Below, one piece after another: positions 11,481 to 41,732 of a stretch of DNA of 64,000 nucleotides. The position numbers and the translations under genes were made by a program. The notes under the pieces were generated by a model that worked only from the letters and a program-made list of their open reading frames with translations, did not search any database and was not told where the DNA came from. This DNA is from Bdellovibrionota bacterium (GTDB lineage Bacteria; Bdellovibrionota; UBA1018; CAIPTA01; JAALKR01), in the NCBI GenBank assembly GCA_965207455.1, contig CBDBMJ010000001.1:576001-640000 (forward strand), in the 5' to 3' direction. Within the stretch, counting starts at the first letter, position 1; each line of letters starts with the position of its first letter.

Positions 11481-11485
11481 TACTG

Positions 11486-20406: not shown

Positions 20407-23088
20407 ATGGGTTTGGGGATCACATTTAAGCAACAAAGCAAAGAGACTCAGTCGGGTTCTGCCATTTTAATGGTGATGGTCTTAGGTTTATTTATATCTA
20501 GCCTTTCCTACCTTTCCCTTCGAAAGTATCAGATTCATTTAGGGTCGCAAAAAACAGCGGAAGCTCGACAAACACTGCACATGATCCATACAGATATTCG
20601 AGGTGTATTGGGAGACACGCAATCTTGCACAGAGACAATAAAAAAAATTGCCATTTCAGAGGTAAGTAGCAAACTTCTTCCATTTATTAAAGGTTCTGGT
20701 GGGCAGATACTCTACCGGGTTAATAGGCCAGATAGCACTGGAACAACAATCACTGAACTGCAACTCTCCAAGCTTACTCCTATCCCGGGTACTACTAGCT
20801 CCATGGCAGAACTCTCTATCTTTTTTGAAAGGAAAAATAGCACTGGTCTTGAACTTCCTTCCTTTCGAGCCAGAGATATTAAAATTAAAATAGATCATCC
20901 ACCTCTTAATGTGACTCAACTTGCTCTCGGGAAATACCACACATGTGCGTTGTTTACTAATGGAAGGATGAAGTGCTGGGGCGGTGGTAGCGGAGGGAAT
21001 AATAAAGGACAATTAGGTTATGAAAATAAGGATACTATAGGTGATATTGTAGATGAGTTAGGGGGCAATCTTCCCTTTGTAGATTTAGGGTCCGGTATTA
21101 ATGGTCCTTATAAAGCAACAGCTATTTCTGCTGGTAATCAGCATACCTGTGCACTTTTAAATGTGGAAGGAACGGGAAGAGTAAAATGCTGGGGAAATAA
21201 TGCTGCTGGACAGTTGGGTTATGGCAATATATTTTCAAAGGGAGATCAAGAACATGATATGACAAATCTTCCTTTTATAGATTTGGGTGGTATTATTGAC
21301 GGTCATCATTTTTCAGTGCTGGCTATTGCTAGTGGGGATAGTCACAACTGTGCAATTATAGTGGATCCTCCTAGAGCGCCACCGGGACGAGCTTGGGAAG
21401 AAAGAAAAGTTAAGTGCTGGGGAGAGAATGAGCATGGGCAGCTTGGGCGAGGGAATACAGAGGATAGAGGCGATGAGGGTGGGGAGATGAGAAACGCTTT
21501 GGACTTCATACAATTAGGGCAAGGAGGAGGGCAACAGTTAGAGGTTGTTGCTATTAGTGCAGGAATAAGCCACAGCTGTGCTATTTTGAATACTACGCAA
21601 GGTAAGCAAATTAAGTGTTGGGGAAGTAATAGTGCTGGTCAATTAGGGGCAGGATCTACTGCTAGTAAAAGAGGAGCACTTGCAAATGAGATGGGTAGTT
21701 TTTTAAATTTTATTAATTTAGGAACGATTAGTGGTGGTACTGATCCTTTACATGTTTTGTCGATGAGTACAGGGGGAGAAACTAGCTGTGCTGTTTTAGA
21801 TATAAGTACCGGAAGTAGGTTAAAGTGCTGGGGATATAATTCAAAAGGACAGTTAGGTATTGGTAACAGTAATTCAAAGGGACAATCTCCCAACCATATG
21901 GGAAACTATATTTCCTCTAGTGTAGGGCTTCCCTTTGTGGATTTGGGTACAAATTTAGTGGCTAAATCCGTTTCTGTTGGTAATAAGCATACTTGTGTTA
22001 CTTTAACAAGTGGTAAAGTAAAATGTTGGGGAGAGGGTGGTGATGGTCGGCTTGGTTTGGGTAGTGGAGGTGTTTCTGATCCTATTGGCAATAGAGCTAA
22101 CGAAATGGGATATTATTTAAAATATTCTAAATTGGGAACTGATGCTAGTACTGGTGAACGCCATAGGGCTAGTGATGTTTTTGCTGGTTTTGTTCACACT
22201 TGTGCTGTAATGAGTGAAAAAGTAAAGTGTTGGGGTGAGGGAGGTGACAGAGCGCTTGGGTATGGCAATAACCAAAGTATTGCTCGTTTTAACGCTGGTG
22301 AAATGGGGAACAATCTTGGATTTGCTTTGATAGGGTCAGAAAAAATATGCACAGCAATTTTTGCCGAAGATGGAGAAAATTGGGAGTATAAGGATGGGTC
22401 CATTTTTTTGGGTGATGATAGCACAAAGCTGGGTATTGGTACGGATGAACCCGAGGAGATGCTTCATGTGAAGGGTACTATGAAAATAGAGGGAGATGCT
22501 TCTGCTGAAAATGTGTTCAGTTCTGGTTCGATACAATTAGATGAATTTACAGGATCGGATTGTACTGATACAGAAAAGGGGACTCAGCGATTTCGTGGAT
22601 ATGAAATGGAATATTGTGACGGAACTGATTGGAGGAATTTGGGTCAATCGCTTTGGGAGGAACATCCTAACCAAATAGCCACACCAGCTACTGGTACGCC
22701 TAGAAATGTGGGAATAGGAACGGATAATCCTCAAGCTAGATTACATGTTGCAGGAGAAAGTAAATTAGAAAACGGTGAATTTACAGTAGATGGCAATTCC
22801 GCTAGTCCTAGTAGCATTCCTAAGGCATTAGCTATTGGTGGTAATGTTGGAGTTGGGGGAGATGCTACAGGTGCGGAAAATACGGGTACAGATTATAGAT
22901 TAAAAATTGAGGATGGAAACTTTGTATCTACGGGTTTTACGAAAATGGATCATATGAAGTTGAAGGCTACAACTGCTCCTGAGTGCTCCCCTGCAAAGGG
23001 TTTAAACACTCTCTACTATAATATAGCTATTAATAGTCTCCAGTACTGTGATGGGAATATCTGGAGAAGTTTTAGGGTAGCTCCCTAG
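20407..23088 (+). CDS. 'A1': PilX/GspK-like prepilin + inserted long-blade RCC1 propeller + fibre-like stalk
   Basis: QSG|SAILMVMVL leader, repeated H(T/S)C...KCWG.N..GQLG...LPFVDLG blades, then (V/L)GIGT..P...LHV.G and YCDG..W motifs. Confidence 0.8.
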   Translation: MGLGITFKQQSKETQSGSAILMVMVLGLFISSLSYLSLRKYQIHLGSQKTAEARQTLHMIHTDIRGVLGDTQSCTETIKKIAISEVSSKLLPFIKGSGGQILYRVNRPDSTGTTITELQLSKLTPIPGTTSSMAELSIFFERKNSTGLELPSFRARDIKIKIDHPPLNVTQLALGKYHTCALFTNGRMKCWGGGSGGNNKGQLGYENKDTIGDIVDELGGNLPFVDLGSGINGPYKATAISAGNQHTCALLNVEGTGRVKCWGNNAAGQLGYGNIFSKGDQEHDMTNLPFIDLGGIIDGHHFSVLAIASGDSHNCAIIVDPPRAPPGRAWEERKVKCWGENEHGQLGRGNTEDRGDEGGEMRNALDFIQLGQGGGQQLEVVAISAGISHSCAILNTTQGKQIKCWGSNSAGQLGAGSTASKRGALANEMGSFLNFINLGTISGGTDPLHVLSMSTGGETSCAVLDISTGSRLKCWGYNSKGQLGIGNSNSKGQSPNHMGNYISSSVGLPFVDLGTNLVAKSVSVGNKHTCVTLTSGKVKCWGEGGDGRLGLGSGGVSDPIGNRANEMGYYLKYSKLGTDASTGERHRASDVFAGFVHTCAVMSEKVKCWGEGGDRALGYGNNQSIARFNAGEMGNNLGFALIGSEKICTAIFAEDGENWEYKDGSIFLGDDSTKLGIGTDEPEEMLHVKGTMKIEGDASAENVFSSGSIQLDEFTGSDCTDTEKGTQRFRGYEMEYCDGTDWRNLGQSLWEEHPNQIATPATGTPRNVGIGTDNPQARLHVAGESKLENGEFTVDGNSASPSSIPKALAIGGNVGVGGDATGAENTGTDYRLKIEDGNFVSTGFTKMDHMKLKATTAPECSPAKGLNTLYYNIAINSLQYCDGNIWRSFRVAP

Positions 23089-23253
23089 TCCATCCTATAA
23101 AAATCTATAAATAGTCTATAAATAGGGCTGAAACCTTATTATATTTGACTTGAGCAAAAAATGTTAATTTTTCTAAATATTTGTTTAGTTGACTAAAAAA
23201 CAATGTTATACTAAAGGTAGAGTATTTTTACAGAAAAGTAATGGGGGATTTTA

Positions 23254-26200
23254 ATGCTAACAAAGCCAATAAGTGGAAAGCGTCCTTTTAGTAATCAGTC
23301 TGGTGTAACCCTAGTGGGTGTGGTAGTAGCGGCTGGTTTGCTGGGAGTGCTTACCCTATTTTCCATGCAAGTCCAAATTAATTTAATCGGTAGTCAGGAA
23401 ACAACGGATAATCGGTATGCGTTTAATAATATTCAATCTAATATTCGTCAATTGTTAGGGAGTCCAAAAGCTTGTAGAGAAACGTTAGAAGGACAGATCA
23501 TTCCTAATCTACCGAATAATTATCTTTCTGTTTCTGACATAAGAGACGATACGGGATCAGCAACGTACAGTCAAGGTAGTTCTTATGAGGGTGGTAGGGT
23601 ATTGATTTCAAAAATGGATCTTTCTTCCTTTGTTCCCAGTGAAAGCGGTTCCCATGAAGGTACAGCAGAATTGCTGGTCTTTTTTCAATCCGCAACAAAT
23701 GTTCCTGGAACTATTGATGCAAAACCAAGAAGAATTGCTTTAAGTATTAAAACCAATCTTACTACTCGTTCTATTACTAAGTGTAGTGCCCTATTTTCAG
23801 AAAAAAATGACAACTCTTGGAGAGAGAATGTCCAGAAGGATCTGTATTTTGATGCTAGTTATGTGGGTATTGGTGTGGAGAATCCAGAAAATGAACTGGA
23901 TATATTGGGAGACGCTAAGTTTAAAGGTAGTTTGAATGTAATAGGCTTATATGATCTGAAAACAATAAAGGTTGGATTTTCGGGTGACTGTAATGCAGGG
24001 TCTCAGCGATATAATACGGGCACCGATACTATGGAGTTTTGCAATAGTGGTAGCTGGGAAGCGATGGGGAGCCTTTGGTCTCAAACGGATACTGGAAACT
24101 TTTATACTGATCCCGCAAAAAATGTTGGTATTGGAACAGAAACACCAGAAAAGAAATTTCATGTGGATGGTAATGCTAAGTTTGATGGTTATATGAGGAT
24201 GGATTCCAGTTCTGGATCAAGCCAGGCATTGGCAGTGCAGGGAAGAGTTATCATTGGACAAAATTTAGATAGCAGCTCTTCTATTGTAATTCCTCCAACG
24301 CTAGCTTCTGATGATACACAGTTCGGTGTGGATGGTGATGTGGAAATTGAAGGCACACTAGAAACGAGTACTATGCAAATAAGCCATGGCAGTCAAGCCT
24401 GTAATGGGGAGAGCATTGGAGTAACGAAGCGTTCTGGTTCAGGTCAGTTTAAATACTGTGATGGAAATAATTGGCAAGTTCTTTTGCCTGAGGATGTAAA
24501 CTTTGTGAAGGAAGAAGATGATGAAATTTTAGAGGTAGATAAAATAATGGTGGGTAAAAATCATACTTGCACTTACTTTACGAATAAAAAAGTAAAATGT
24601 TTTGGAAAAAATAATAAGGGTCAACTGGGTGATAATACGAATAATGATAGTGGTACTCCTGTTTATGTTGAAGATGATGGAGGTAACCATTTAGAAGATG
24701 TTGCTGCAATTTCAACCCATGGAGAGAGCGATTCCACCTGTGCTCGTATGGTTGATGGAACGGTGAGATGTTGGGGAGCAAATAATGAAGGCCAGTTAGG
24801 TAACGGGAGTTCTTCTGATTCGAATCATGCAGTAGCAGTTAATGATATTTCTACAGCTACTTTAATTTCTGTGGCTGCTAAACATGCTTGTGTGCGGTTG
24901 AGTGACGGTACTGCAAAATGTTGGGGAGCAAATGATGAAGGCCAGTTGGGTGATGGTACTAAATTCCAGAGAAATACGCCTGTTTTAGTTAAAGACTCTT
25001 CGGGTACAGATAATCGTGAAGATATTACAAGTATAGAAACAGGTAATGATAGGACTTGTATTAACTATGAGGTTGGTGGGGAGACTAGATCTGGATGTTG
25101 GGGCAAAGATGGAGATCAAACAGCACCTGGTAATACAGATGATTCACTTTTTTCAGGGCCAGTAGATATTGCTATAGCAGGAGATCATATTTGTATGCGA
25201 CCACAAAGTGGAACCGTTCAATGCTGGGGGCTGAATCAATTTGGGCAACTTGGTGATGGTCATACTAGTAGTGATGAGACATACAGATCAGAGCCAAAGC
25301 TTGTGATTGGTATAACGAGTGCAGTGAAAATTGCTGTACGCAATGGATCTAGCTGCGCTATCTTAAGAGATAAGTCTTTGTGGTGTTGGGGACAGATAAC
25401 AAATGATATATCATCAAACAAAGCAGTTAAGGTTGTGGGTTTTGAGAATGTTGTGGATGTTCGTCTTGGTTATTATCATAACTGTGTAACATTTGAAGAC
25501 GGAACAGGCAAGTGCTGGTCAAATGACCCCAGCAGTGTTACGAATCAAGAAGGTCTTGTTAGTAATCCAGATAATTCTATTTCTACCGAGAGTGAGACGC
25601 TTGAAATATTTGATCATGCTGAAACGGTTGGACAATTCAGGTTTAGACCTTGTGGAGGTGTAATTAGACATAAAAGTGAATCTACTGGTGTAGTAGGAGA
25701 TAGGCGATCTTGTGCAGTAGGTTCTGCTTTTCATAACGATATTGTAGACGGTGTTTGTGTTCAATCCTTAAATTGTTCTTTTGATGGTTCAGGGTATGGC
25801 CGTGAGAGAGTTTGTGAATCTGCACAAGGAACCTGTAAGTATACATGTAGTAATAGTACTTGGACAAGAAAGACAAACAATTGTGAAAAGCTAGTAACGC
25901 GAGTTCATTCACCAGACGGACCGCCACCAGTGTGGCCTATACAAATTGCCTCGGGATATTATCATACCTGCGTAGTTCTTAATGATGGCACAGCCAAATG
26001 CTGGGGGAGGAATAATAAAGGGCAATTGGGTAATGGTACTAAAGACAGTAGTTCAACACCAGTTAAAGTTTCTGATCTAACGAATGCGGTTCAAATTTCC
26101 GTGGGAGATAATCACAGTTGCGCAGTTCTTAGTGATGGCACAGCCAAGTGCTGGGGAAATAACGAAGATGGACAATTGGGTGATGGTCATACAACCAATA

Positions 26201-28080
26201 GATATACACCAGTTGCAGTTTCTGGTCTAACGAATGCGGTTCAAATTGCCTTGGGGGAAGAACACACCTGCGCAGTTCTTCGTGACGGCACAGCCAAATG
26301 CTGGGGAGCTAATAGTAGCGGGCAATTGGGTGATAATAGTTTAACCAGGAGAAATACAGCAGTTGCAGTTGATGGTATAACGAATGCGGTTCAAATTGCC
26401 TTGGGATATACTCACAGTTGCGCAGTTCTTAATGATGGCACAGCAAAGTGTTGGGGAAAGAATAATTTTGGGCAGTTGGGTGACGGTTTTACAACTAATA
26501 GACGTAAACCAGTTGAAGTTTTTGAGTTAACGAATGCCGCTCAGATTGCCTTAGGAGATTTTCACACCTGTGCGATTCTTACTGATGGTACAGCAAAATG
26601 CTGGGGGCGGAATAACTATGGGCAATTGGGTGATAGTACAGGAACCCAGAGAAATACCCCAGTTGCAGTTCTCGAGTTAACGAATGCGGTTCAAATTGCC
26701 TTGGGATCTTATCACACCTGCGCAGTTCTTCGTGACGGCACAGCCAAATGCTGGGGGTATAATAATAGAGGGCAATTGGGTAATGGTAGTACAACCCATA
26801 GATCTACACCAGGTACAGTTCCTGTGTTAACGAATGTGCTTCAAATTGCCTTGGGATCAGCGCACAGTTGCGCAGTTCTTCGTGACGGCACAGCCAAATG
26901 TTGGGGGTGGAATGCATATGGGCAATTGGGTAATGGTAGTACAACCCAGAGAACTACACCAGTCTTCGTTGATGGTTTTTCCACTCCCTACCTTTTTCCC
27001 ACGGAAATTGCTGGGGGAGAAACCCACAGTTGCGCACTTATGAATGATGGCACAGCCAAATGCTGGGGGTGGAATAACTATGGGCAATTGGGTAATGGTA
27101 CTAAAGACAGTAGTTCAACACCAGTTAAAGTTTCTGATCTAACGAATGCGATTCAAATTTCCTTGGGAGATAATCACAGTTGCGCAGTTCTTAGTGACGG
27201 CACAGCCAAATGCTGGGGGTATAATAATAAAGGGCAATTGGGTGATAATACTACAGCAGATAAATTAACACCAGTTAAAGTTTTAGGGTTAGCGAATGCG
27301 GTTCAAATTGCCTTGGGAGGGTATCACACCTGCGCACTTCTTCGTGACGGCAAAGCAAAGTGCTGGGGGAATAATAATAGAGGGCAATTGGGTGATGGTA
27401 CTACAACCCATAGATCTAAACCAGTTGCAGTTCTCGTGTTAACGAATGCGGTTCAAATTGCCTTGGGAGAAAACCACAGTTGCGCAGTTCTTCTTGACGG
27501 CACAGCAAAATGCTGGGGGTGGAATAAATATGGGCAATTGGGTAATGGTACAGGAACCCAGAGAAATACCCCAGTTGCAGTTCTCGAGTTAACGAATGCG
27601 ATTCAAATTTCCTTGGGAGGTTACCACAGTTGCGCACTTCTTCGTGACGGCACAGCCAAATGTTGGGGGCGGAATGGTAATGGGCAATTGGGTGCTAGCA
27701 CTACACAGACATGTGGCACTGCAAATATTCCTTGTAGCAGCACACCAGTTGCAGTTGATGGGTTAACGAATGCGGTTCAAATTGCCTTGGGATTTCACCA
27801 CAGTTGCGCAGTTCTTCGTGACGGCACAGCCAAATGTTGGGGGTGGAATGCATATGGGCAATTGGGTAATGGTAGTACAACCGATAGATATACACCAGTT
27901 GCAGTTTCTGGGTTAACGAATGCCGTTCAAATTTCCTTGGGAGATAATCACAGTTGCGCAGTTCTTAGTGATGGCACAGCCAAATGCTGGGGGAGGAATG
28001 CATCTGGGCGATTGGGTGATGGTCATACAACCGACAGATCTACACCAGTCTTCGTTGATGGTACATTATTAAATCCATAA
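23254..28080 (+). CDS. 'B1': prepilin-like + fibre stalk + RCC1 propeller + 8-Cys domain + two extra 7-blade RCC1 propellers
   Basis: NQSG|VTLVGVVVAAG leader, VGIG..P repeats, and 14 near-identical ~50-aa repeats at the C-terminus. Confidence 0.82.
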   Translation: MLTKPISGKRPFSNQSGVTLVGVVVAAGLLGVLTLFSMQVQINLIGSQETTDNRYAFNNIQSNIRQLLGSPKACRETLEGQIIPNLPNNYLSVSDIRDDTGSATYSQGSSYEGGRVLISKMDLSSFVPSESGSHEGTAELLVFFQSATNVPGTIDAKPRRIALSIKTNLTTRSITKCSALFSEKNDNSWRENVQKDLYFDASYVGIGVENPENELDILGDAKFKGSLNVIGLYDLKTIKVGFSGDCNAGSQRYNTGTDTMEFCNSGSWEAMGSLWSQTDTGNFYTDPAKNVGIGTETPEKKFHVDGNAKFDGYMRMDSSSGSSQALAVQGRVIIGQNLDSSSSIVIPPTLASDDTQFGVDGDVEIEGTLETSTMQISHGSQACNGESIGVTKRSGSGQFKYCDGNNWQVLLPEDVNFVKEEDDEILEVDKIMVGKNHTCTYFTNKKVKCFGKNNKGQLGDNTNNDSGTPVYVEDDGGNHLEDVAAISTHGESDSTCARMVDGTVRCWGANNEGQLGNGSSSDSNHAVAVNDISTATLISVAAKHACVRLSDGTAKCWGANDEGQLGDGTKFQRNTPVLVKDSSGTDNREDITSIETGNDRTCINYEVGGETRSGCWGKDGDQTAPGNTDDSLFSGPVDIAIAGDHICMRPQSGTVQCWGLNQFGQLGDGHTSSDETYRSEPKLVIGITSAVKIAVRNGSSCAILRDKSLWCWGQITNDISSNKAVKVVGFENVVDVRLGYYHNCVTFEDGTGKCWSNDPSSVTNQEGLVSNPDNSISTESETLEIFDHAETVGQFRFRPCGGVIRHKSESTGVVGDRRSCAVGSAFHNDIVDGVCVQSLNCSFDGSGYGRERVCESAQGTCKYTCSNSTWTRKTNNCEKLVTRVHSPDGPPPVWPIQIASGYYHTCVVLNDGTAKCWGRNNKGQLGNGTKDSSSTPVKVSDLTNAVQISVGDNHSCAVLSDGTAKCWGNNEDGQLGDGHTTNRYTPVAVSGLTNAVQIALGEEHTCAVLRDGTAKCWGANSSGQLGDNSLTRRNTAVAVDGITNAVQIALGYTHSCAVLNDGTAKCWGKNNFGQLGDGFTTNRRKPVEVFELTNAAQIALGDFHTCAILTDGTAKCWGRNNYGQLGDSTGTQRNTPVAVLELTNAVQIALGSYHTCAVLRDGTAKCWGYNNRGQLGNGSTTHRSTPGTVPVLTNVLQIALGSAHSCAVLRDGTAKCWGWNAYGQLGNGSTTQRTTPVFVDGFSTPYLFPTEIAGGETHSCALMNDGTAKCWGWNNYGQLGNGTKDSSSTPVKVSDLTNAIQISLGDNHSCAVLSDGTAKCWGYNNKGQLGDNTTADKLTPVKVLGLANAVQIALGGYHTCALLRDGKAKCWGNNNRGQLGDGTTTHRSKPVAVLVLTNAVQIALGENHSCAVLLDGTAKCWGWNKYGQLGNGTGTQRNTPVAVLELTNAIQISLGGYHSCALLRDGTAKCWGRNGNGQLGASTTQTCGTANIPCSSTPVAVDGLTNAVQIALGFHHSCAVLRDGTAKCWGWNAYGQLGNGSTTDRYTPVAVSGLTNAVQISLGDNHSCAVLSDGTAKCWGRNASGRLGDGHTTDRSTPVFVDGTLLNP
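25930..28060 (+). repeat. 14 coding tandem repeats of ~150 bp (RCC1/BLIP-II blades, 2 x 7)
   Basis: Recurrent gcagttctt...ggcacagccaaatgctgggg...gggcaattgggt...acgaatgcggttcaaattgccttggga, with linker FSTPYLFPT after blade 7. Confidence 0.93.
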
Positions 28081-28092
28081 AGGAGAGTAAGC

Positions 28093-30591: not shown

Positions 30592-30622
30592 CTATAACTG
30601 TTTTGTGTGATGGAGGAGAATT

Positions 30623-32038
30623 ATGAGAAAAAAAGGCAAAACCACTTGGTTGAACTCTTCAGGTATGAGTTTAGTTGCTGTAATGATAGTTGTGACGTTT
30701 ATGAGTTCCTGTGGCAATGGAACATTTGAAGTTACAGCAGATTCCACAGGTGTGACGGGTACCACGAGAGACACAGCAAGTAAAATACTTTTGGGACGCG
30801 ATCATACTTGCGCACTTATTAGTGATGGCACTGTAAAATGTTGGGGAAATAATTTTTATGGGCAATTGGGTAACGATTCTACGGATGATAGCACCACCCC
30901 TGTTATAGTTTCTGGACTCTCTAACGTACGTCAAGTTATATTATATTGGGAACATACTTGCGCAATCATTAATGATGGTACTGTGAAGTGCTGGGGAAAG
31001 AATGAAAATAGTCAGTTGGGTGCTAGCACTACACAGACATGTGGCACTGCAAATATTCCTTGTAGCAGCACACCCGTTGAAGTTTCTGGCTTAAGTAATG
31101 TGAGTCAAATTGCTTCAGGAGCGTATCATTATTGTGCATTATTAACTACAGGCTCTGTAAAATGCTGGGGTTTAAATAGTTCTGGACAATTGGGCGACGG
31201 CAATGGTGGTAATACTGGAGATAAAAGTCCAACACCTGTTCTCGTTTCTGGGATTACCAATGCAAGTCGAATTGCCTTAGGACATTATTATAGTTGTGCA
31301 TTATTAACGACTGGCTCTGTGAAATGTTGGGGGCGAAATAGTTTTAGGCAGTTAGGCGACGGTACTTCTGAGCAAAGAACGGTGCCAGTTGCCGTTTCTG
31401 GGATTACCAATGCAAGTCAAATTAGAGCTGGGGAAGATTCCACCTGTGTTATTTTAAGTGACGCTTCTGTAAAATGCTGGGGAACTAGTTCTTATGGGAA
31501 GTTGGGTTATGGTAGTACAGATCATACCGCAATACCAGTTACAGTTTCCGGTATTGATAACGCAAGTCAAATTCTTATGTCCAATGTTCACGCTTGTGCA
31601 TTATTAACCACTGGTTCTGTGAAATGTTGGGGGAAGAATGAGTCCGGGCAATTGGGAAATGGCAGTGGTGGTAGCAGTGGAGATAAAAGTTTAGCACCAG
31701 TTGAGGTTTTTGGCATTACTAATGCAAGTCAAATTGATATTGGCTACTATCATTTTTGTGCATTATTATCGACTGGCTTTGTGAAGTGTTGGGGCTTGAA
31801 TAGTTCTGGGCAATTGGGCGACGGCAATGGTGGTAATACTGGAGACAAAAGCCTAGTACCGGTTACAGTTTCTGAACTCAGCAATGTAAGCCAACTTTCA
31901 TTAGGAGGTCATTATAGTTGTGTTGTTTTAAATGATGATACTGTGAAATGCTGGGGTCAGAATAGTGATGGGCAGTTAGGCGACGGTTCCACAGATGATC
32001 GCACCACACCCATTAATCTCGTTAACTTACTTGAATGA
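30623..32038 (+). CDS. 'D': exported RCC1-repeat protein (8 repeats) with a prepilin-like and/or lipoprotein signal
   Basis: SSG|MSLVAVMIVVTFMSSC leader and eight VKCWG repeats. Confidence 0.8.
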   Translation: MRKKGKTTWLNSSGMSLVAVMIVVTFMSSCGNGTFEVTADSTGVTGTTRDTASKILLGRDHTCALISDGTVKCWGNNFYGQLGNDSTDDSTTPVIVSGLSNVRQVILYWEHTCAIINDGTVKCWGKNENSQLGASTTQTCGTANIPCSSTPVEVSGLSNVSQIASGAYHYCALLTTGSVKCWGLNSSGQLGDGNGGNTGDKSPTPVLVSGITNASRIALGHYYSCALLTTGSVKCWGRNSFRQLGDGTSEQRTVPVAVSGITNASQIRAGEDSTCVILSDASVKCWGTSSYGKLGYGSTDHTAIPVTVSGIDNASQILMSNVHACALLTTGSVKCWGKNESGQLGNGSGGSSGDKSLAPVEVFGITNASQIDIGYYHFCALLSTGFVKCWGLNSSGQLGDGNGGNTGDKSLVPVTVSELSNVSQLSLGGHYSCVVLNDDTVKCWGQNSDGQLGDGSTDDRTTPINLVNLLE

Positions 32039-32801: not shown

Positions 32802-35414
32802 ATGAATGTAAGTCTTACGAAAGATAGGAATCATTTTCAATCAGGAGCTGCCCTTCTTATAGTGATGGCCTTGAGTGTATTGTTAGCCAGTATATCTCTT
32901 ATTTCCACACAGAAATTTCAGTTTCACTTAGGGATGCAAAAAACAGTAGAAGCCCGTCATGCCATAAAAGTTATCCATGCGGATATTCGAGGTGTGCTGG
33001 GAGATAGGCAATCCTGCACAGAGACGATAAAAGAGGTTACCCTGTCTGAGATAGACGGCAGTCCTATTTTTTCTATTAAAGGGCCTAGTGGGCAGGAACT
33101 CTATAGAGTGAATGTGGAGATATCTGGTGGAACGAAAATCTCTAGAATGGAATTCTCTACATTCACGCCCATTGATTTCATTACTGGCACAGCAAAAATT
33201 TCTCTTTTTTTTCAACAAAGAGCTAGTGGTGGGATTGGATCAGCAAATACCCAATCCAAAAAAGACATTACACTCAAAATCGATCGCCCTCCTCTTGAAG
33301 CAAAGCAACTTGCTCTTGGAAAATTCCATACATGCGCACTATTTACGAATGAAAAGGTGAAGTGCTGGGGTGGTGGTAGAGGAGGGAATAATCAAGGGCA
33401 ATTGGGGTATGGGGATCGCAATCCCAGAGGATATATTATCGATGAGTTAGGGGAAAATCTTCCCTTTGTAGATTTAGGTTCTGATGCCTCTGGTTCCTAT
33501 AAAGCAACAGCTATTTCTTCTGGTAATCAATACACCTGTGCAATTTTAAATGTGCAAGGAAAGGGAAGGGTGAAGTGCTGGGGGAGTAATTCAAGCGGTC
33601 AGTTAGGTCAGGGCGATCATAATTCAAGGGGAGATGGAACTTCAGAGATGGGAAATAATCTTCCTTTTGTAGATTTGGGAGGCACTAGTGCAGGTGAATT
33701 TTATGCAGTACTGGGTATTGCTAGTGGAGATAGTCACAGTTGTGCAATTTTAGATAGAGCAGGAAAAGGAGCATTGAAGTGCTGGGGGGATAATTCAGCA
33801 GGACAGCTTGGGTTAGGTCATACACGCAATATTGGTGATGATAGTGATGAAATGGGGGATTTCCTCAATTTTCTAGATTTGGGACAAGAAAATGGATTGG
33901 AACTAGAGGTTAGCGCTGTTGCCTTAGGATTAGAGCATAGCTGTGCTGTTTTTCAAAATAGGAAAACCAAATGTTGGGGATCCAACAATTCAGGTCAGCT
34001 TGGATTGACTAATCGTAGTGAGAGTAGAGGTGATGCCACAAGTGATATGTCCAACAACCTTCCCTTTCTGGATTTTGGAATGATAAACTCTATTCCACTA
34101 GGAACTCTAGCCATTAGTGCAAGAGGAAACAGCAACTGTGTTATTTTGGATTCCAATATTGGCAGTAGATTGAAGTGCTGGGGAAACAATTATAGGGGTA
34201 TGTTGGGGCTGGGATTATCCACTGCTTTCTTGGGTCATCGTACAGATCAGATGGGAAACGATCTCCCTTTTGTGGATTTGGGTACAGGTATAGAAGCTAA
34301 ATTCGTTAGTGTGGCTAAAGAATTTGTTTGTGTTACCTTAAGAAATGGTCGGGTGAAGTGTTGGGGGAGTGGTGTTAATGGTCAGCTTGGTTTGGATACA
34401 GGATCTGTTGTTGCTATCGGAGATAGTTCTAGCCACATGGGGGATAATTTAGGATTTATTGACTTAGGAACCGTTGATGGTACTGATACTGGTTCTCCCC
34501 ATCGAGTTAGTGCTGTTTATTCCGGTTTTTTTCATAGCTGCGCTATCATTTCAGGGGGGTTGAAGTGCTGGGGTTTAGGTGGCGACGCTGCACTTGGAAA
34601 CGGCAGTAACGAAGATATTGGCAATAATGCTGGAGAAATGGGTAATAATTTTGATCTAATGGCATTAGTGCGACAGCAGTTTTGTACAGCGATTTTTGCT
34701 AGTGACGGAGAAAATTGGGAATATGACCCCACAAACTCAGCAATTTTTTTAAGTGGCACGCAAAATGTGGGTATTGGTACGGATGATCCTCAAGAGAAGC
34801 TTCATGTGATTGGTATTATGAAGGTGATAGGAGAGGTTTCTGCTGGAAGCGTAGTTAGTGCTGGTCCCATAAAAATGCAGGACGAAAGGGAATTGAATTG
34901 CGACACTACAGAAGAGGGAACTCAGCGCTTTCGTAGAGATATAATGGAATTTTGTAATGGAAGCGAATGGAAAAGTATGGGTCAGTCGATCTGGGAGGAA
35001 AACACGAACCAAATATTTATAGCGGATACAGCTGGTGTGTTCAGAAATGTGGGAATAGGAACCAATAATCCTCAAGCCAGGTTTCATGTTCGAGGAAATA
35101 GTAAACTAGAAAATGGTCTATTTAAAATAGATGGCAATGCCAGTGACCCTAATTTCCCCAAGGCATTGGCCATTGGTGGTAATGTTGGGGTTGGAGCGGA
35201 CTTTGCGGGGGCAGAAAATACAGTCTATAAATTAAAAGTTGCAGACGGAAATTTTGTTGCCACAGGATCGGTGCAGGCGCATAGCATACAATTGGATTCT
35301 AGTGCTCCAGAGTGCACCCAAAACAAAGGCATAGAGACTATTTATTATAATGAAAGTGCTGCTAGCCTCCAGTACTGCGATGGAGAATCTTGGAGAAGTT
35401 TTGATTTGGAATAG
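32802..35414 (+). CDS. 'A2': full-length paralog of A1
   Basis: QSG|AALLIVMAL leader. IHADIRGVLGDRQSCTETIK versus IHTDIRGVLGDTQSCTETIK. Same domain order. Confidence 0.82.
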   Translation: MNVSLTKDRNHFQSGAALLIVMALSVLLASISLISTQKFQFHLGMQKTVEARHAIKVIHADIRGVLGDRQSCTETIKEVTLSEIDGSPIFSIKGPSGQELYRVNVEISGGTKISRMEFSTFTPIDFITGTAKISLFFQQRASGGIGSANTQSKKDITLKIDRPPLEAKQLALGKFHTCALFTNEKVKCWGGGRGGNNQGQLGYGDRNPRGYIIDELGENLPFVDLGSDASGSYKATAISSGNQYTCAILNVQGKGRVKCWGSNSSGQLGQGDHNSRGDGTSEMGNNLPFVDLGGTSAGEFYAVLGIASGDSHSCAILDRAGKGALKCWGDNSAGQLGLGHTRNIGDDSDEMGDFLNFLDLGQENGLELEVSAVALGLEHSCAVFQNRKTKCWGSNNSGQLGLTNRSESRGDATSDMSNNLPFLDFGMINSIPLGTLAISARGNSNCVILDSNIGSRLKCWGNNYRGMLGLGLSTAFLGHRTDQMGNDLPFVDLGTGIEAKFVSVAKEFVCVTLRNGRVKCWGSGVNGQLGLDTGSVVAIGDSSSHMGDNLGFIDLGTVDGTDTGSPHRVSAVYSGFFHSCAIISGGLKCWGLGGDAALGNGSNEDIGNNAGEMGNNFDLMALVRQQFCTAIFASDGENWEYDPTNSAIFLSGTQNVGIGTDDPQEKLHVIGIMKVIGEVSAGSVVSAGPIKMQDERELNCDTTEEGTQRFRRDIMEFCNGSEWKSMGQSIWEENTNQIFIADTAGVFRNVGIGTNNPQARFHVRGNSKLENGLFKIDGNASDPNFPKALAIGGNVGVGADFAGAENTVYKLKVADGNFVATGSVQAHSIQLDSSAPECTQNKGIETIYYNESAASLQYCDGESWRSFDLE

Positions 35415-35661: not shown

Positions 35662-35923
35662 ATGTCGATACCTAATGTAGAGAAAAGCGGTGAATTACCT
35701 GCTGGGGTTCATGCTGCTACCATTAAAGAAATTGAGAAGAGATTTGGTCGATCCTCTGACAGAAGGAGGCTTTTAATGACTGGACTCAAGAAAGCAATTG
35801 ATGAGTTTAAAAAAGTGAATGTAAAGAAGATCTATGTTGATGGATGTTGGGTATCAGAGGGAGTTAAAGAAGAAGACCTATACAGATGCTGATTCTAAGG
35901 GAATCATCAGAATTGATATTTAA
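35662..35923 (+). pseudogene. DUF6932-like nucleotidyltransferase toxin remnant with internal deletions
   Basis: GELPAGVH.AT..EI..RFG..S.RR...IYVDG is joined directly to CW. The C-terminal KGIIRIDI* is in another frame. Confidence 0.6.
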
Positions 35924-35939
35924 AAGAAAGGGTTTTGTT

Positions 35940-36359
35940 ATGATTACAAGCAAAAGACAATTAAATGCATCTAAAAAGAAGATTGAGTTTTTAAGAAAGT
36001 CAAGTAAGGCAATGAAAAAGAAATCAAGAGGTGTTCTTGCAAAATCTTCTCTTATTCAAACTGAGACCATGATTCAAGAGCTTGAAAATAAGGTTCTGGA
36101 ATATGAAACTCTTTATAGCAAAGGACTTGAAGCTATTGAGATTGAAATGCTAGAAGATATTATGCTTTTACCGATTAAGTACAGAATCGCAAAACATTTG
36201 TCTAAAGAAGATTTTGCTCGTAAAGTAGATGTACCAGTTAGAATGATTTCAAGATATGAGACAGAGGGATATACTAATATCAGAGGAGTGACTTTTAAAA
36301 AGATTTTACATAATCTTCCTCTACTGTTGAACGTAAAGAAGCGTAATAAAATTGGATAA
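35940..36359 (+). CDS. XRE HTH protein, probable cognate antitoxin (ORF open from 35886)
   Basis: MITSKRQL coiled N-terminus and RIAKHLSKEDFARKVDVPVRMISRYE HTH. Confidence 0.75.
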   Translation: MITSKRQLNASKKKIEFLRKSSKAMKKKSRGVLAKSSLIQTETMIQELENKVLEYETLYSKGLEAIEIEMLEDIMLLPIKYRIAKHLSKEDFARKVDVPVRMISRYETEGYTNIRGVTFKKILHNLPLLLNVKKRNKIG

Positions 36360-36555
36360 GACGAAAACTGTGGTACTCCAGATAAGTTGCGGTAGTTACA
36401 CAATTTGCGGTAGTTAGGATAAGTATTGACAAGTCGCGTCTCTCCAAAATAATGCTCTGCATTGTGTTATTTGATGCTAGTCCTCTCTTCTAGTTGATAG
36501 AAAAATAATGTTACAATAAGGAGGGTTATGGTTTATCTCCAGAAAGGGAGAATCG

Positions 36556-39261
36556 GTGATTTGTACTAAATCGGGTATTTCTAGGCTTTTTATTTTTCTG
36601 TTCTTATGTAGCAAGACACATGCAAGGAGCACCAATCAATCGGGTGTAACCCTAGTGAGTGTAATGATAGCCACTGCTTTACTTGGTATGCTTGTTTTGC
36701 TTGCTGTCCAAGTCCAAGTTAATTTAATCGGTGGTCAAGAAATAGCAGATAATCGATATGCTTTAAATACTATTCATTCCCATATTCGCCAACTATTATC
36801 TCATACAAGAGCTTGCGAACAAACATTCCAGGGCAAAATCGTTACTACTAATGTAGGAACTTTTCTCAGCATACCTGATATAAAAGATAAAACAGGCGCA
36901 GTGGCCTATGCAATAGATACTCTTTATGAATACAATAAGGTGGAAATTTCAAAAATAGATCTTTCTCCCTTTGTTCCTAGTAGTTCCGATCCCTATGATG
37001 GTAGGGCCGATCTATATTTTCATTTTAAACCGTCACAAAATTTTAATGCTATTCCTATGAAACCGAGAAAAGTTCCTTTAAGGATTCAAATTGATTTAAA
37101 TGGCAACAATTCTATTATTAGTTGTAGTACTATATCTTCCAATAGAGGTGGCCATTCTTGGAAAATAAATAACAATAATGTTTACTTTGATGGTGATTAC
37201 GTTGGTATTGGTACAGATGAACCAAGATCTATATTAGATGTATTAGGAGACACTAAGATCGCAGGAAAATTAGAGGCAGAGGAGTTATACAATATAAAAA
37301 AAATGCAAATTGGTTATTTGGATGACTGTACTAATGGAGCTCAAAGATACAATATCACCAGCAAGGTTATGGAATTTTGTAATGGTAGTGTTTGGGTATC
37401 TATGGGAGGTCTTTGGTCCCAAGCAAGCAATGGAAGTGTTTATTATAATGGTGGAAAAAATATTGGTATTGGTATAGTAACACCTGGAGAAAAATTCCAT
37501 CTGTACGGCAAAGCAAATTTCATAGGTTATATGCAGATAGATAATCCATCCAGCCAAGCGCTAGCTTTGCAAGGAAAAATTGCCATTGGGAAAAGTTGGG
37601 ACTCTGCTTCTCGAACTCTAGCTCCAGGCGATCAGCTTGGCGTGGAAGGTGATGTGTTAATCGATGGTACTTTAGAAACGAAAATCCTAAATATGAAAAA
37701 AGGAACTCAGGAGTGCAATACCACCAATAGTGGAATAAGCAAATTTTCTGGTCCCAGTCAGTTTCATTACTGTGATGGAAGGAATTGGCAGCTTCTTCTG
37801 CCCAAGGATGATCGCAGTGTTGTGAATGAAGTGGAAAAAGAGAGATTAGAGGTGGATCAAGTGGTGGTGGGTACAAACCATACTTGCGCTCTTTTCAGCA
37901 GTGGTAAGGCAAAGTGTTGGGGAAAGAATAATTTTGGGCAGTTGGGTAATGGCACTACTAACGATAGTAATATACCCACTTATGTTCTCAATAGTCTAGA
38001 TAGTCAGCCACTAGAGAGTATTCTACAGATTGATACCAGCCATGAAACCACCTGTGTTCTTCTTAGTGATGGCAGTGTGAAATGTTGGGGGCATGGAAGG
38101 CGAGGTCAATTAGGTAATGGGCATTTTAGTGAGTTTGAGAGGTGGCCACAAACAGTTCGCACGATTGTCAGTGCCACTCAAATTTCTGTGGCATATGAAA
38201 GTGCTTGTGCACGATTGAACAATGGAGAGGCAAAGTGTTGGGGGTTAAATGATAAGGCTCAGTTGGGTAATGGGGAGACCACAAATAGTTCCACACCTGT
38301 TTTTGTTTCCGTTTCACCGGGAATGAATCGTCCAGATATTGTGAGCATATATGTGGGTAGGTACCAGACTTGTATTACTTTTTCCACTGGTGGGGAGAAG
38401 GAATTTGGATGTTGGGGTTGGCGTGGGCAAGCTGGAATTGGTGATGATGGGGCACAAATAGGAAATAAAATATGGGCACCTAAGGATGCTGTAGAATCTA
38501 TCCTTCGAGATGTGGAGTTTGCTGCCGTGGGAGAAAAGCATATTTGTGTGAAGCTAGAAGATACAAGTTCCCGATGCTGGGGAAAGAATGATAAAGGGCA
38601 GCTTGGTGATAATAGTACTTTAGCAAAAACGAAACCAACACTCGTCTACGGTTTAATCAATGTGGCAAAAATTGCTGTTCATAATGAATTTTCTTGTGCA
38701 GTCTTAATCGATCAATCGGTATTTTGTTGGGGAAATATACCGTCAGCCATTGAAATAAATACACCTGCTAGGATTGTAAATTTTGAGATTGCCAAAGATA
38801 TTTCTCTTGGTAAATATCATAACTGCATAGTGAAGGAAAATAAAACAATCCTATGCTGGTTACATGATCTTAGTACTGATCCCAGTAATGAGCCAATAGT
38901 TGTTGCCGAAGGGGTAGATGATTACTTTTCCAATCAAAATGAGTTACTTACCACATTTGATTATACTCCAGACTCGCCATCACAGGGATACAAACCCTGT
39001 AAAGGTAAAATAATATCTTCGGCAAACTCCAGTGCTCTCAACAATAAAACATCTTGTATGATGGGTGTTGGTTTTCATAATGAATCTAAAACTGGTGTTT
39101 GCACCCAAAACGAAACTTGTCGTATTGAAGTTATTGGACTCGATCGTAAAAGAGTTTGTGAATGGGGTAGGGGAATTTGCATATATAGTTGTAGCAATGG
39201 TACTTGGATTAAAACAACAAACGTTTGCGAAAAGGAAATATTAGAAATTTTGTCCTTATAG
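36556..39261 (+). CDS. 'B2': paralog of B1 that ends after the 8-Cys domain
   Basis: NQSG|VTLVSVMIAT leader. Collinear with B1 up to CSNGTWIKTTNVCEK. Confidence 0.82.
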   Translation: MICTKSGISRLFIFLFLCSKTHARSTNQSGVTLVSVMIATALLGMLVLLAVQVQVNLIGGQEIADNRYALNTIHSHIRQLLSHTRACEQTFQGKIVTTNVGTFLSIPDIKDKTGAVAYAIDTLYEYNKVEISKIDLSPFVPSSSDPYDGRADLYFHFKPSQNFNAIPMKPRKVPLRIQIDLNGNNSIISCSTISSNRGGHSWKINNNNVYFDGDYVGIGTDEPRSILDVLGDTKIAGKLEAEELYNIKKMQIGYLDDCTNGAQRYNITSKVMEFCNGSVWVSMGGLWSQASNGSVYYNGGKNIGIGIVTPGEKFHLYGKANFIGYMQIDNPSSQALALQGKIAIGKSWDSASRTLAPGDQLGVEGDVLIDGTLETKILNMKKGTQECNTTNSGISKFSGPSQFHYCDGRNWQLLLPKDDRSVVNEVEKERLEVDQVVVGTNHTCALFSSGKAKCWGKNNFGQLGNGTTNDSNIPTYVLNSLDSQPLESILQIDTSHETTCVLLSDGSVKCWGHGRRGQLGNGHFSEFERWPQTVRTIVSATQISVAYESACARLNNGEAKCWGLNDKAQLGNGETTNSSTPVFVSVSPGMNRPDIVSIYVGRYQTCITFSTGGEKEFGCWGWRGQAGIGDDGAQIGNKIWAPKDAVESILRDVEFAAVGEKHICVKLEDTSSRCWGKNDKGQLGDNSTLAKTKPTLVYGLINVAKIAVHNEFSCAVLIDQSVFCWGNIPSAIEINTPARIVNFEIAKDISLGKYHNCIVKENKTILCWLHDLSTDPSNEPIVVAEGVDDYFSNQNELLTTFDYTPDSPSQGYKPCKGKIISSANSSALNNKTSCMMGVGFHNESKTGVCTQNETCRIEVIGLDRKRVCEWGRGICIYSCSNGTWIKTTNVCEKEILEILSL

Positions 39262-39293
39262 TAGAAAAATATGGATAAGCGAGGATTCTAATC

Positions 39294-41732
39294 ATGAATA
39301 AAATGAATCAGCAATCGGGTACTTCTTTGATCAGTGTGATGATAGCTGCAGTGATACTGGCGATAATTTCACTGTTTGCCATAAAGCTTCAAGAGAATAT
39401 ACTCAGTGGGCAAAAATATGTGGAGCGAAGATATTCCGTACAGGAAATCTTTGAGGATATTCGTACATTTATGGGTAATGCAAGAGTTTGTAGGAAAAGT
39501 TTGGAAGGCTTGAGACTGCCTACTGCCTCTGTTCCTCAAATAAAAGATGTTAATGGAGATATGGTATACGAAGAAAATGCTTTTTATGAAAATGGAAATA
39601 TTGAGCTTAGCTCTATAGCTCTTTCTAGACTCTACCCGGAGTTTCCTGGTTCCAATAATGGCTTAGCTGATTTAACATTAACATTTCTTCCAAGAGCAAA
39701 CGCTCTTGGGTCTGAATTTGTGGGCACCTTTCATCCTAGAATAATTCGTCTTTCTGTAGAATTAGACCCCAACAATGGAAATAGCATAAAAAACTGTATT
39801 AGCATTGCAGGGACAAACGATGCGAATTGGCAGTATGGAGCCAATGAAGATTTATACTATATGGGTAATTTTGTGGGGATAGGAACCAATGCCCCTCGTT
39901 CAAGATTGGACGTTCGAGGAAATATTCGAGTGGATGGAGCAATGGACGTTGATGAATTAGTTACGAATGGTGCTATGTATGTGGGATCTGCGGACGCACT
40001 TGTTTGTTCGAATACTACGGAAGGAACTCAGCGCCACAGAATCTTTAATGGTGAAAGTTCTATGCAGTTCTGTAGCAATGATAGTTGGAAAACTATGAAA
40101 GATATTTGGCAACAAGATGATTTGTTTATATATGCACCTCTTACTAGGAGTGTGGGTATTGGAGTTAATGCTCCCAATGTGAAATTAGATGTAAAAGGTA
40201 GTAGTCGGTTTCAGGGCACTGTAGCCATGATCGCGTCTCCGGGTTCTTCTTTGGGATTAGTGGTGCGGGGAAAGGTTCAAATTGCTCAATCCTCCTCCAG
40301 TGCCAATGCTATTTTAGACAGGGCATCAACAACTAGTAGTCTGGGCGTGAAAGGAAATGTGAAAATAGAAGAAGCCACTAGAGGAGTATTGTGGTTCAAA
40401 GAAAGAGCTACAAATGTACGCTGTGATAATTCTAAAAAAGGGACCATACGAAGTAAGAATAGAAAATTACAATACTGCAATGGAGGTGCTTGGAAAACAC
40501 TAAAAACAAAGAGAATGTTAATCATAGAGCAAATTGAGAGTGGTTTAAACTATTCTTGTGCAAGAGTTACTAGCCGTAATAGAACTACAGCAAAATGTTG
40601 GGGTTCTAATTTTTGGGGGCAGTTGGGCATAGGGAAATCTGGATTTTATAATCCTGTTCCTAATACAGTCTTGGAAAGGGGAATACCAGAGGATAGACTT
40701 TCCAGTTATCTTGATAATGTTACGGAAATTTCTTTAGGTTATAACCATACTTGCGCAATAGCAGGTACAGCTAAAAAAGTTTATTGTTGGGGGAGTAACG
40801 ATAAATATAAATTGGGGGCAGGGTTCAATGAAAGAAATAGTACGGGTGAGATTGAGTTTAAGGTTAATCCTGTTTTAGTATCAGGTGTAGCCTTTAACCG
40901 TGATGTGGATAAAATATCTGTAGGTCACAGTCATAGTTGTGCTGTGAAAAATAAGGAAGTTTATTGTTGGGGAGCCAATAATCATGGTCAGATCGGCAAT
41001 GGAACGGTTACTGAATTTGTGGAAGTTCCCACTAAGGCAACGGGCATTCATAATGCAATAGATGTATTTACTAGTGAGTCCTTTACTTGTGCAAGGTTAA
41101 GTGATGGTAGGGCAAAATGCTGGGGGTCGAATTGGTACGGTCAATTGGGTAATAATGATGACCAGTATTGGAAAAGAGGCAGCTCTATTCCCATTTCTGT
41201 AAAAAATCTTAGTGGTATAGAACAACTCACCTTGGGTTCACGCCATGCTTGCGCTCGATTAATAGACAAAACAATGTGGTGCTGGGGAGATGGAGAAAGT
41301 GGGCAATTGGGCAATGGTGTTCTCACTCTCAGCAATCTTCCCGTTCAGGTGCTTTTAGAAATAAGTCCTGTAAGTGTTTCTCTTTCTGGAGTTACCCATA
41401 TTTCCGCTGGTCATCAAACTTGCGCTGTTATAGGGGAGACAGGCATAGCTATGTGTTGGGGACTCAATCGACAAGGTGAGCTTGGCAATGGATCAAGAAC
41501 AATAAGCTCTCTTCCCAGCAAAGTAGCTGGTCTTACAAAGGTATCAAAAATTTCAGTGGGGTATCACCATACCTGTGCAATTTCTACTGAGACCGTTAGT
41601 GGTGAGGAGAAAGGAAACACAGTTGCTTGCTGGGGACTGAATACTCATGGTCAACTGGGAACGGGGTTGACCACTGTACGCAATAGCTTCTACCCCACAT
41701 CTGCCCTTCTTTTATTTAAATCTTCGCCATAA
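39294..41732 (+). CDS. 'C2': full-length paralog of C1
   Basis: QQSG|TSLISVMIAAV leader. LDPNNG...IKNC, WQYG.NE.LYYMGN and TTAKCWGSN.WGQLGIGK are shared with C1. Confidence 0.82.
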   Translation: MNKMNQQSGTSLISVMIAAVILAIISLFAIKLQENILSGQKYVERRYSVQEIFEDIRTFMGNARVCRKSLEGLRLPTASVPQIKDVNGDMVYEENAFYENGNIELSSIALSRLYPEFPGSNNGLADLTLTFLPRANALGSEFVGTFHPRIIRLSVELDPNNGNSIKNCISIAGTNDANWQYGANEDLYYMGNFVGIGTNAPRSRLDVRGNIRVDGAMDVDELVTNGAMYVGSADALVCSNTTEGTQRHRIFNGESSMQFCSNDSWKTMKDIWQQDDLFIYAPLTRSVGIGVNAPNVKLDVKGSSRFQGTVAMIASPGSSLGLVVRGKVQIAQSSSSANAILDRASTTSSLGVKGNVKIEEATRGVLWFKERATNVRCDNSKKGTIRSKNRKLQYCNGGAWKTLKTKRMLIIEQIESGLNYSCARVTSRNRTTAKCWGSNFWGQLGIGKSGFYNPVPNTVLERGIPEDRLSSYLDNVTEISLGYNHTCAIAGTAKKVYCWGSNDKYKLGAGFNERNSTGEIEFKVNPVLVSGVAFNRDVDKISVGHSHSCAVKNKEVYCWGANNHGQIGNGTVTEFVEVPTKATGIHNAIDVFTSESFTCARLSDGRAKCWGSNWYGQLGNNDDQYWKRGSSIPISVKNLSGIEQLTLGSRHACARLIDKTMWCWGDGESGQLGNGVLTLSNLPVQVLLEISPVSVSLSGVTHISAGHQTCAVIGETGIAMCWGLNRQGELGNGSRTISSLPSKVAGLTKVSKISVGYHHTCAISTETVSGEEKGNTVACWGLNTHGQLGTGLTTVRNSFYPTSALLLFKSSP

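Follow-up and report, generated by a model that had tools for sequence, protein, structure and literature searches.

Duplicated genes joining a pilin-like head, a fibre stalk and RCC1 propellers in a Bdellovibrionota bacterium: candidate modular adhesins of a type IV pilus tip

We analysed a 64,000-nucleotide stretch of DNA from an uncultured Bdellovibrionota bacterium (assembly GCA_965207455.1, contig CBDBMJ010000001.1, positions 576,001 to 640,000), here called the window, which carries a nine-gene RCC1-propeller island at 20.4-45.6 kb. Six of these genes, each encoding a pilin-like N-terminal domain (N-domain), a fibre-like stalk and RCC1 propellers in a single protein, are the subject of this report. 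An earlier sequence-only reading of the window had placed them in the order A1, B1, C1 and, further on, A2, B2, C2, and six long open reading frames (ORFs) on the + strand were confirmed at these positions. The RCC1-type propellers that it had assigned to the genes were recovered by Pfam in all six (PF25390, PF00415 and PF13540, E values from 3e-17 to 7e-212), while NCBIfam holds no family for any of them. The features of the island are listed below in window coordinates (aa, amino acids), with the evidence for each in brackets.

20407-23088, + strand: A1, 893 aa; pilin-like module split by an inserted RCC1 propeller, C-terminal stalk (ORF, RCC1 Pfam matches, six-way alignment)
20407-20901, + strand: A1 leader, alpha1 helix and first strands of the pilin-like head, with the first Cys, C74 (alignments)
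22366-23088, + strand: A1 stalk, 240 aa; directly preceded by the last pilin strand, which holds C648 (alignments)
23254-28080, + strand: B1, 1608 aa; a propeller, a Cys-rich module and further propellers after the stalk (ORF, Pfam, alignments)
23254-23790, + strand: B1 pilin-like module (alignments)
23776-24495, + strand: B1 stalk (alignments)
25942-28061, + strand: B1 150-bp tandem array, one RCC1 blade per unit, about 14 copies, 75-85% matches (repeat analysis)
28093-30591, + strand: C1, 832 aa; one propeller after the stalk (ORF, Pfam, alignments)
28093-28650, + strand: C1 pilin-like module (alignments)
28624-29355, + strand: C1 stalk (alignments)
30623-32038, + strand: gene D, the seventh gene; leader, lipobox-like MSSC and propeller (ORF, Pfam)
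32802-35414, + strand: A2, 870 aa; propeller inserted between the N-terminal part of the pilin-like module and the stalk (ORF, Pfam, alignments)
32802-33266, + strand: A2 N-terminal part of the pilin-like module (alignments)
34713-35414, + strand: A2 stalk (alignments)
35886-36359, + strand: helix-turn-helix (HTH) gene of the HTH_3 (XRE) type between A2 and B2 (Pfam HTH_3, 1.8e-7)
36556-39261, + strand: B2, 901 aa from a GTG start; propeller after the stalk, C-terminal Cys-rich module (ORF, Pfam, alignments)
36631-37160, + strand: B2 pilin-like module (alignments)
37126-37815, + strand: B2 stalk (alignments)
39294-41732, + strand: C2, 812 aa; one propeller after the stalk (ORF, Pfam, alignment; AlphaFold2 model of residues 1-174)
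39294-39815, + strand: C2 pilin-like module (alignment; AlphaFold2 model)
39786-40505, + strand: C2 stalk (alignment)
43265-45592, - strand: lipoprotein (LNAC lipobox) with two RCC1 propellers, which closes the propeller island; no pilin chimera (sequence, Pfam)

The two sets do not form clean triplets. B and C are separated by 12-32 bp in both sets, gene D follows directly after C1, and the HTH gene together with about 1.1 kb lies between A2 and B2. The start codon of B2 is uncertain, the GTG at 36556 standing against a database gene call (P0012) that begins 36 codons later, inside the hydrophobic helix. Gene D has an SG/MSLVAVMIVV-type leader as in the six genes (slashes mark the position after the conserved Gly-1), followed by the lipobox-like MSSC and a propeller, with neither pilin head nor stalk; from these motifs, gene D may encode a lipoprotein, or else a minimal fusion of leader and propeller.

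When residues 1-402 of C2 were searched against the genome, the other five genes were matched with E values of 1e-132 to 1e-17, and by this measure the paralogy of the six is far beyond chance. Genes of the same type share 45-56% identity and genes of different types 26-36%, in the N-domain and the stalk alike. The N-domain tree joins A1 with A2, B1 with B2 and C1 with C2 at 98-100% support. In the stalk tree, A1/A2 is recovered at 100/100 and C1/C2 at just 88/92, and B1, B2 and the foreign protein P0016 form a single clade (100/100) with no resolved inner order. The pairing of types across the two sets in the N-domain tree, taken with the identity pattern, suggests that the three types arose first and that the block was duplicated once afterwards. 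Two more N-domain paralogues lie elsewhere in the genome, bringing the total to eight. Both have a degenerate leader and neither is near pilus genes: one (L001, G000:C3:325958-327280) has its N-domain fused to a Pro-rich and Cys-rich tail, and the other (L002, G000:C1:1334430-1335002) is apparently truncated at 189-191 aa.

The type IV prepilin-like leader that had been proposed for the six proteins was found to be preserved at one position and degenerate at two others. Gly-1, the determinant of prepilin peptidase cleavage, is kept in all six and is invariant in the 19 rows of an alignment of the six genes, one paralogue and 12 relatives, but Phe1 and Glu5 are lost: in the order C2, C1, B1, B2, A1, A2, the residues at +1 are T, V, V, V, S, A and those at +5 are S, S, G, S, M, I. 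All eight paralogues of the genome are without Phe1 and Glu5, and the ordinary pilins of the same genome read G/FTLIE. A check with the profile hidden Markov model of Pfam N_methyl (PF07963, IPR012902; gathering cut-off 21.2 bits) gave a divided answer. With hmmscan, B2 (17.8 bits) and C2 (15.9 bits) stayed below the cut-off and the other four had no match at E ≤ 0.01; in a genome scan, B2 (23.4) and C2 (21.4) were over the cut-off, B1 (18.6) and C1 (15.2) were under it, and A1 and A2 were absent.

Relatives of the N-domain retain more of the prepilin signature. Homologues were found with the N-domain profile in 73 of the 127 genomes of the class, and the 12 whole- or near-whole-domain homologues that were aligned have Gly-1 throughout, Glu5 in 11 cases and F (ten), L (one) or M (one) at +1. 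Pfam N_methyl was passed by six of 14 scanned relatives, and the B-type orthologue P0016 starts QLG/MSLIE. We read the N-domain as a pilin because its relatives carry the canonical G/F-T-L-x-E motif. The AlphaFold2 model of C2 residues 1-174, built from the 19-row alignment (predicted local distance difference test, pLDDT, 88.9; predicted template modelling score 0.75), has a 51-residue helix (residues 10-60) and a beta-sheet with strands within residues 82-170; its fold matches to known pilins were weak. The conserved Cys pair of the domain corresponds to C66 and C168 in C2. Against 48,161 representatives of the PDB, pilins or pseudopilins made up 19 of the top 50 rows, the best match being EpsI/GspI (Z 5.3, root-mean-square deviation 3.3 over 81 residues), with S. 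sanguinis PilB and GspK also in the lead, and the N-domain profile weakly matched the alpha1 helices of TcpA and PilA (E 0.005-0.02). We regard the fold evidence as supportive rather than decisive and the sequence link to canonical prepilins as the stronger argument for pilin identity. On this basis, the N-domain appears to be a real but degenerate type IV pilin module.

The A type departs from the expected layout. In the six-way alignment, its propeller does not follow the stalk but lies inside the N-domain, and the stalk ends the protein. In A1, the second conserved Cys (C648) and its surrounding strand (KICTAIFA) come after the propeller and match, in the alignment, the strand that closes the pilin heads of B and C. 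On this evidence, the A propeller is best described as inserted into the final hairpin of the head. The stalk exits the head at the same point in A, B and C; A stops there, and B and C run on into propellers. Domain insertions in the pilin sheet are described for GspK and ComZ (PMC8179133; here and below, this paper, PMC10769870 and PMC11623550 are cited for passages of each).

Collinearity of the stalk motifs across the three types, also noted from the sequence beforehand, was confirmed by the six-way alignment, in which 29 columns are invariant over 242 profile positions, among them G.G..P...L...G, G.QR, M..C....W, GIG...P and YC.G..W. The stalk is 227-240 aa long in the six genes and consists of two repeat modules with two full VGIGT units, each module ending in a Cys-Cys motif that would form a disulfide knob. 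Loop lengths vary between types at at least six places, and also between B1 and B2. Among solved structures, the stalk profile matched Bd2133 (8ond, E 2.7e-6), human MYRF (7dc3, E 3.7e-4, just before the MYRF chaperone domain) and, weakly, three further entries of mosaic adhesive trimers (MATs); all solved relatives found are thus either a MAT fibre or MYRF. MYRF is presumably a homotrimer. MATs are trimers of one protein (PMC10769870).

An exhaustive search with a profile of N-domain plus stalk returned 67,031 proteins (E ≤ 0.001). Of the 150 best-scoring ones, only five align over both the N-domain and the stalk: P0016, and four that come from this genome or from a strain nearly identical to it. 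The remaining 145 are fibre proteins, 1014-7920 aa long, in which the stalk unit is repeated 8-47 times. Ten of the best 150 were scanned with Pfam, and Peptidase_S74 was found at the end of three of the eight fibre proteins among them, the remaining two being the full-architecture proteins P0011 and P0016. RCC1 was present in P0121, P0011 and P0016. Judging from these matches, what the six proteins carry is a short length of tail-fibre-like stalk related to MAT and MYRF fibres. In an AlphaFold2 monomer model of C2 residues 1-409, the mean pLDDT was 47, with values below 30 in the stalk and of 50-67 in its Cys-containing pieces. The lack of a visible S74 domain was borne out, since Pfam found none in the six genes and Peptidase_S74 had no match in the genome (2.38 Mb, 94.7% complete).

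Relatives with the N-domain do carry this domain. Peptidase_S74 is C-terminal in five of the 14 (493, 653, 659, 821 and 959 aa), and the database proteins P0162 and P0165 are further cases of N_methyl with S74. The S74 relatives are single genes in which the N-domain runs directly into the fibre, with the same junction as in the six genes (C....W..Y..G.VG.GT..P...L.V). S74 domains are trimerisation chaperones (PMC10769870), and the pilin-fibre-S74 relatives are therefore most simply homotrimers; by their sequences, they appear to show the ancestral form of the family. A locus of one same-order relative (L019, G006:C111, 2223-8173) contains, in this order, a PMT_2/TPR glycosyltransferase-like gene, a pilin-fibre-S74 gene (the 821-aa ORF) and two pilA-like genes. 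It resembles a pilus locus equipped with a fibre-tipped pilin of its own and, possibly, a glycosylase for pilins, and the two pilA-like genes directly after the pilin-fibre-S74 gene tie the family to a type IV pilus locus.

Synteny of A, B and C in relatives, which the sequence-only reading had put forward as a check, was not found: no triplet occurs in the loci examined, including stretches from 10 further relatives. Tandem pairs of pilin-like genes do occur in these loci, and a second S74 ORF adjoins in one of them. Whether the types occur independently of one another received a partial answer, in that the only foreign protein of full architecture, P0016, is of the B type and no foreign A or C is present in the best 150 of the 67,031 proteins. 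P0016 and P0011 lie on ENA contigs of 11,988 bp and 8,909 bp, respectively. A single B2 query found no relatives in the genome contigs searched, and a B-type alignment found none in the metagenome contigs searched. Overall, we propose that the six genes are S74-less members of a class-wide modular type IV pilin-like family, whose small minor-pilin head continues straight into a tail-fibre-like stalk.

P0011, a strain variant from a near-identical strain in another data set, has 1245 aa compared to 1608 in B1, indicating that the number of blades or propellers varies between strains. A Cys-rich module, C.Y.C....W....N.C, follows the first B1 propeller (about 25560-25830), ends B2 (about 38950-39261), is present in five copies in the orthologue P0016 and is also found in ORFs adjoining the N-domain paralogues (L001 5965-6160, L002 5828-6199); it has no Pfam match. 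The genome contains canonical GFTLIE pilins, three A24 peptidase matches, four secretins and five T2SSE ATPases, and the A24 peptidases and filament machineries would indicate just the means for cleavage and filament entry of the six proteins. Two of the A24 matches, at 74.8 bits each (G000:C1:1819807-1820133 and 1823960-1824286), lie 4 kb apart near a pilA-like gene (C1:1816407), and this identical-scoring pair may be a recent duplication. PF05567 (PilY1) had no match in the genome, which is uninformative because the same search was silent in all 14 control genomes.

We lean, with modest confidence, towards the six genes being modular, tip-restricted pilin-like adhesins, each of which trimerises via its own stalk, and which together form a duplicated repertoire of alternative tips. 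Prepilin peptidase would cleave each protein after the conserved Gly, and each would then trimerise through its own stalk, like MAT fibres, S74 fibres and the tip pilins CofB and TcpB. Glu5 is dispensable just for the first, tip-located subunit of a filament, as in GspK, and its uniform loss is proposed to mean tip-only placement of the trimers: lacking Glu5, a trimer would be confined to the very top of a type IV filament, which it would prime or cap. There it would present the RCC1 propellers, acting as binding modules distal to the stalk in B and C and inside the pilin head in A, as an adhesin toward prey, host or surface ligands. A role as a pilus-tip adhesin is reasonable, and a link to predation by the organism is conjecture. 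Through its single duplication, the block would have come to offer six alternatives for the tip, a set that can be likened to the repertoire of 21 MATs in Bdellovibrio.

Several observations weigh against this interpretation. With Phe1 and Glu5 gone from every one of the eight paralogues, the proteins may have ceased to enter filaments altogether. N_methyl falls short of its cut-off, or gives no match, for between four and six of the six genes according to the scan used, and no pilus-machine genes were found within the window. The fold matches of the N-domain, with Z of at most 5.3, are under the level set for the tool and may reflect just a common arrangement, and Foldseek with the same model returned nothing at E ≤ 0.001. 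The 14 relatives were picked by hand as the best matches and largest ORFs, and are not a random sample. We infer the oligomeric state of the stalk from homology alone, and neither the A-B-C order kept in both copies nor the near-equal stalk lengths would be needed by a simple duplication of a repertoire.

These last features suit the arrangement that the sequence-only reading had favoured, in which A, B and C contribute a chain apiece to one heterotrimeric fibre, assembled in register on a pilus tip, the two triplets being two alternative tips. The A, B, C order is kept in both copies, and the within-type divergence is similar (45-56%), so the block was duplicated as a unit; however, no such triplet is present in the stretches from the 10 further relatives, and the HTH gene with about 1.1 kb splits A2 from B2-C2, whereas the B-C gap is 12-32 bp. 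The stalks are collinear at 227-240 aa despite a between-type identity of 26-36%, but the loops are of unequal length at at least six places between types and again between B1 and B2. Insertion of the A propeller inside the pilin head leaves the pilin-stalk junction identical in the three types, yet the same junction is found in the single S74 genes of relatives, which points to homotrimers. The sole foreign protein with the full architecture is a B type, with no foreign A or C in the best 150 of 67,031. In GspK-I-J just GspK lacks Glu5, while here it is absent from all three types. GspK-I-J, a tip of three minor pseudopilins (PMC8179133), does provide a precedent for a heterotrimer, and the genome is without an S74 chaperone that could drive homotrimerisation, but the stalk's relatives of solved structure are MAT fibres, which are trimers of one protein (PMC10769870), and MYRF. 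We consider a heterotrimeric stalk quite improbable. If true, it would be without precedent both as a heterotrimer among tail-fibre-like stalks and as a pilus tip made of three fused pilin-fibre chains; the fibre would, on an equally doubtful footing, carry one basal propeller (A) and several distal propellers (B and C) on a type IV filament.

It is also rather unlikely, in our judgement, that the proteins are not pilus-borne at all, the helix being a mere membrane anchor, cleaved or uncleaved, and the fibre and propellers acting in the envelope or at the surface as MATs do on Bdellovibrio. The eight paralogues have neither Phe1 nor Glu5, whereas Glu5 is kept by 11 of 12 relatives; N_methyl scores are at the cut-off or under it and the window is without pilus genes, but Glu5 absence is a known mark of tip subunits such as GspK, and the invariance of Gly-1 in 19 of 19 rows is expected under continued selection for peptidase cleavage. 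Gene D shares the leader and adds a lipobox-like motif without a pilin head, whereas the six genes conserve the entire head, including its two Cys. MATs are displayed on the surface with no known link to a pilus (PMC10769870), while TM7x PilX2 is also without a predicted PilD signal and yet acts with the pilus (PMC11623550). An alternative explanation for the stalk is that it serves as a monomeric spacer of beta-hairpin and disulfide-knob modules, which would make each protein a modular minor pilin in monomeric form. The short stalk has only two full VGIGT units and its own intrachain Cys pairs, and the propellers are autonomous monomeric folds; against this, the stalk profile matches trimeric MAT/MYRF elements and the repeat unit of S74-terminated fibres, and a pLDDT below 30 in the monomer, compared to 50-67 in the Cys pieces, is expected of a chain that folds only as an oligomer. 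Although most modular pilins described so far are monomeric (PMC8179133), we hold a monomeric stalk to be highly unlikely.

Housekeeping genes flank the island, those on the left encoding a zinc dehydrogenase and an aminotransferase and the one on the right an exonuclease of the RNase T family. Scans for promoters and terminators gave counts at the level of shuffled sequence, which are uninformative about operons. Further to the left, the guanine-cytosine content falls to 0.32-0.36 at about 8000-16700, compared to about 0.41 around it. This stretch holds a Dcm-type C5 methylase (9247-10476), several ORFs without a family and a pair of S8 peptidase and AAA ATPase genes (13517-16700, - strand), and it may be a mobile or defence island. 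At 7205-8074 (- strand), a single ORF combines an MqsA-antitoxin domain with a SocA/Panacea domain, and the adjoining 136-aa ORF (8107-8517) is unannotated.

The proteins invite comparison with several known systems. Modular pilins were defined by Raynaud et al. 2021 as a small pilin module with grafted modules, predicted to be tip-exposed (PMC8179133). The six genes likewise fuse a pilin module, with a degenerate signal, to the non-pilus modules fibre and RCC1. They differ in combining pilin, fibre and propeller, in a fibre without a database signature and without S74, in the loss of Phe1 and Glu5, and in the propeller inserted in the pilin head of A. Dataset S1 of that paper lists 29 pilin+S74 proteins (IPR012902-IPR030392) and 8 with extra repeats, as well as five single-protein pilin+RCC1 (N_methyl+RCC1) architectures; in the cited passages and rows of Dataset S1, none of these has been studied. 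A closer functional parallel is PilX2 of the saccharibacterium TM7x, a minor pilin whose signal peptide is non-canonical and whose C-terminal part is an RCC1 propeller of seven blades; deletion of PilX2 halves host binding (2024 preprint, PMC11623550). PilX2 resembles the six genes, by its description, as an RCC1-propeller minor pilin with a non-canonical leader that serves binding to a host bacterium; it differs in that no fibre stalk is described for it in the cited passages, and in being a single gene in the pilus locus of a monoderm-like episymbiont.

GspK shares with the six proteins the position as a tip subunit without Glu5, as proposed here, and with the A type a domain inserted in the pilin head, in GspK in its sheet, and GspI/EpsI is the best fold match of the N-domain (Z 5.3), but GspK-I-J associates via pilin heads and not via a shared fibre. 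PilY1 also places a beta-propeller at the pilus tip; it is no pilin, and its propeller is of a different family. GspK-I-J is a heterotrimer, and the tip pilins CofB and TcpB are homotrimers (PMC8179133). Like the six proteins, CofB and TcpB have a pilin module followed by beta-rich domains, and they form a homotrimer at the tip of a type IVb pilus (PMC8179133). They have no sequence relation to the six, their C-terminal folds differ, and they are encoded in their own pilus operon.

MAT fibres (Caulton et al. 2024, PMC10769870) share the VGIGT-type fibre, a variable distal binding domain and a repertoire of many paralogues, and they too exist in S74 and non-S74 forms. Unlike the six proteins, they start with a Sec signal peptide and a conserved beta-rich N-domain of about 130 aa, and their stalks are far longer; none with RCC1 tips is reported in the cited passages of PMC10769870. 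The family was also compared with one MAT-like protein, P0274, an S74 fibre annotated as a tail fiber domain-containing protein of Bdellovibrio bacteriovorus, in which a Sec-type signal was read from the sequence. Membership of the MATs was rejected on this comparison, with an hhalign probability of 0.2% for the N-domain; the stalk gave just a motif-level match (E 0.0038, probability 8.8%).

Within the literature searched, on RCC1 in pilins and in Bdellovibrio and on S74 in type IV pilins, no pilin-fibre-propeller protein has been described, and the six genes unite three adhesin blocks that are usually studied apart, namely the pilin, the trimeric fibre and the propeller. In addition, one type carries its propeller inside the pilin head, and the loss of Phe1 and Glu5 is uniform, as would fit tip-only subunits. 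How MAT adhesins are held on the cell is left open in the cited passages of PMC10769870, where a possible interplay with type IV pili is raised. In this class, a fibre fused straight to a pilin module offers a testable route, display on a type IV filament, with the fibre carrying S74 in relatives and RCC1 propellers instead in this genome. If these propellers recognise prey or host surfaces as PilX2 does, the island would represent a recognition repertoire of an uncultured bacterium.

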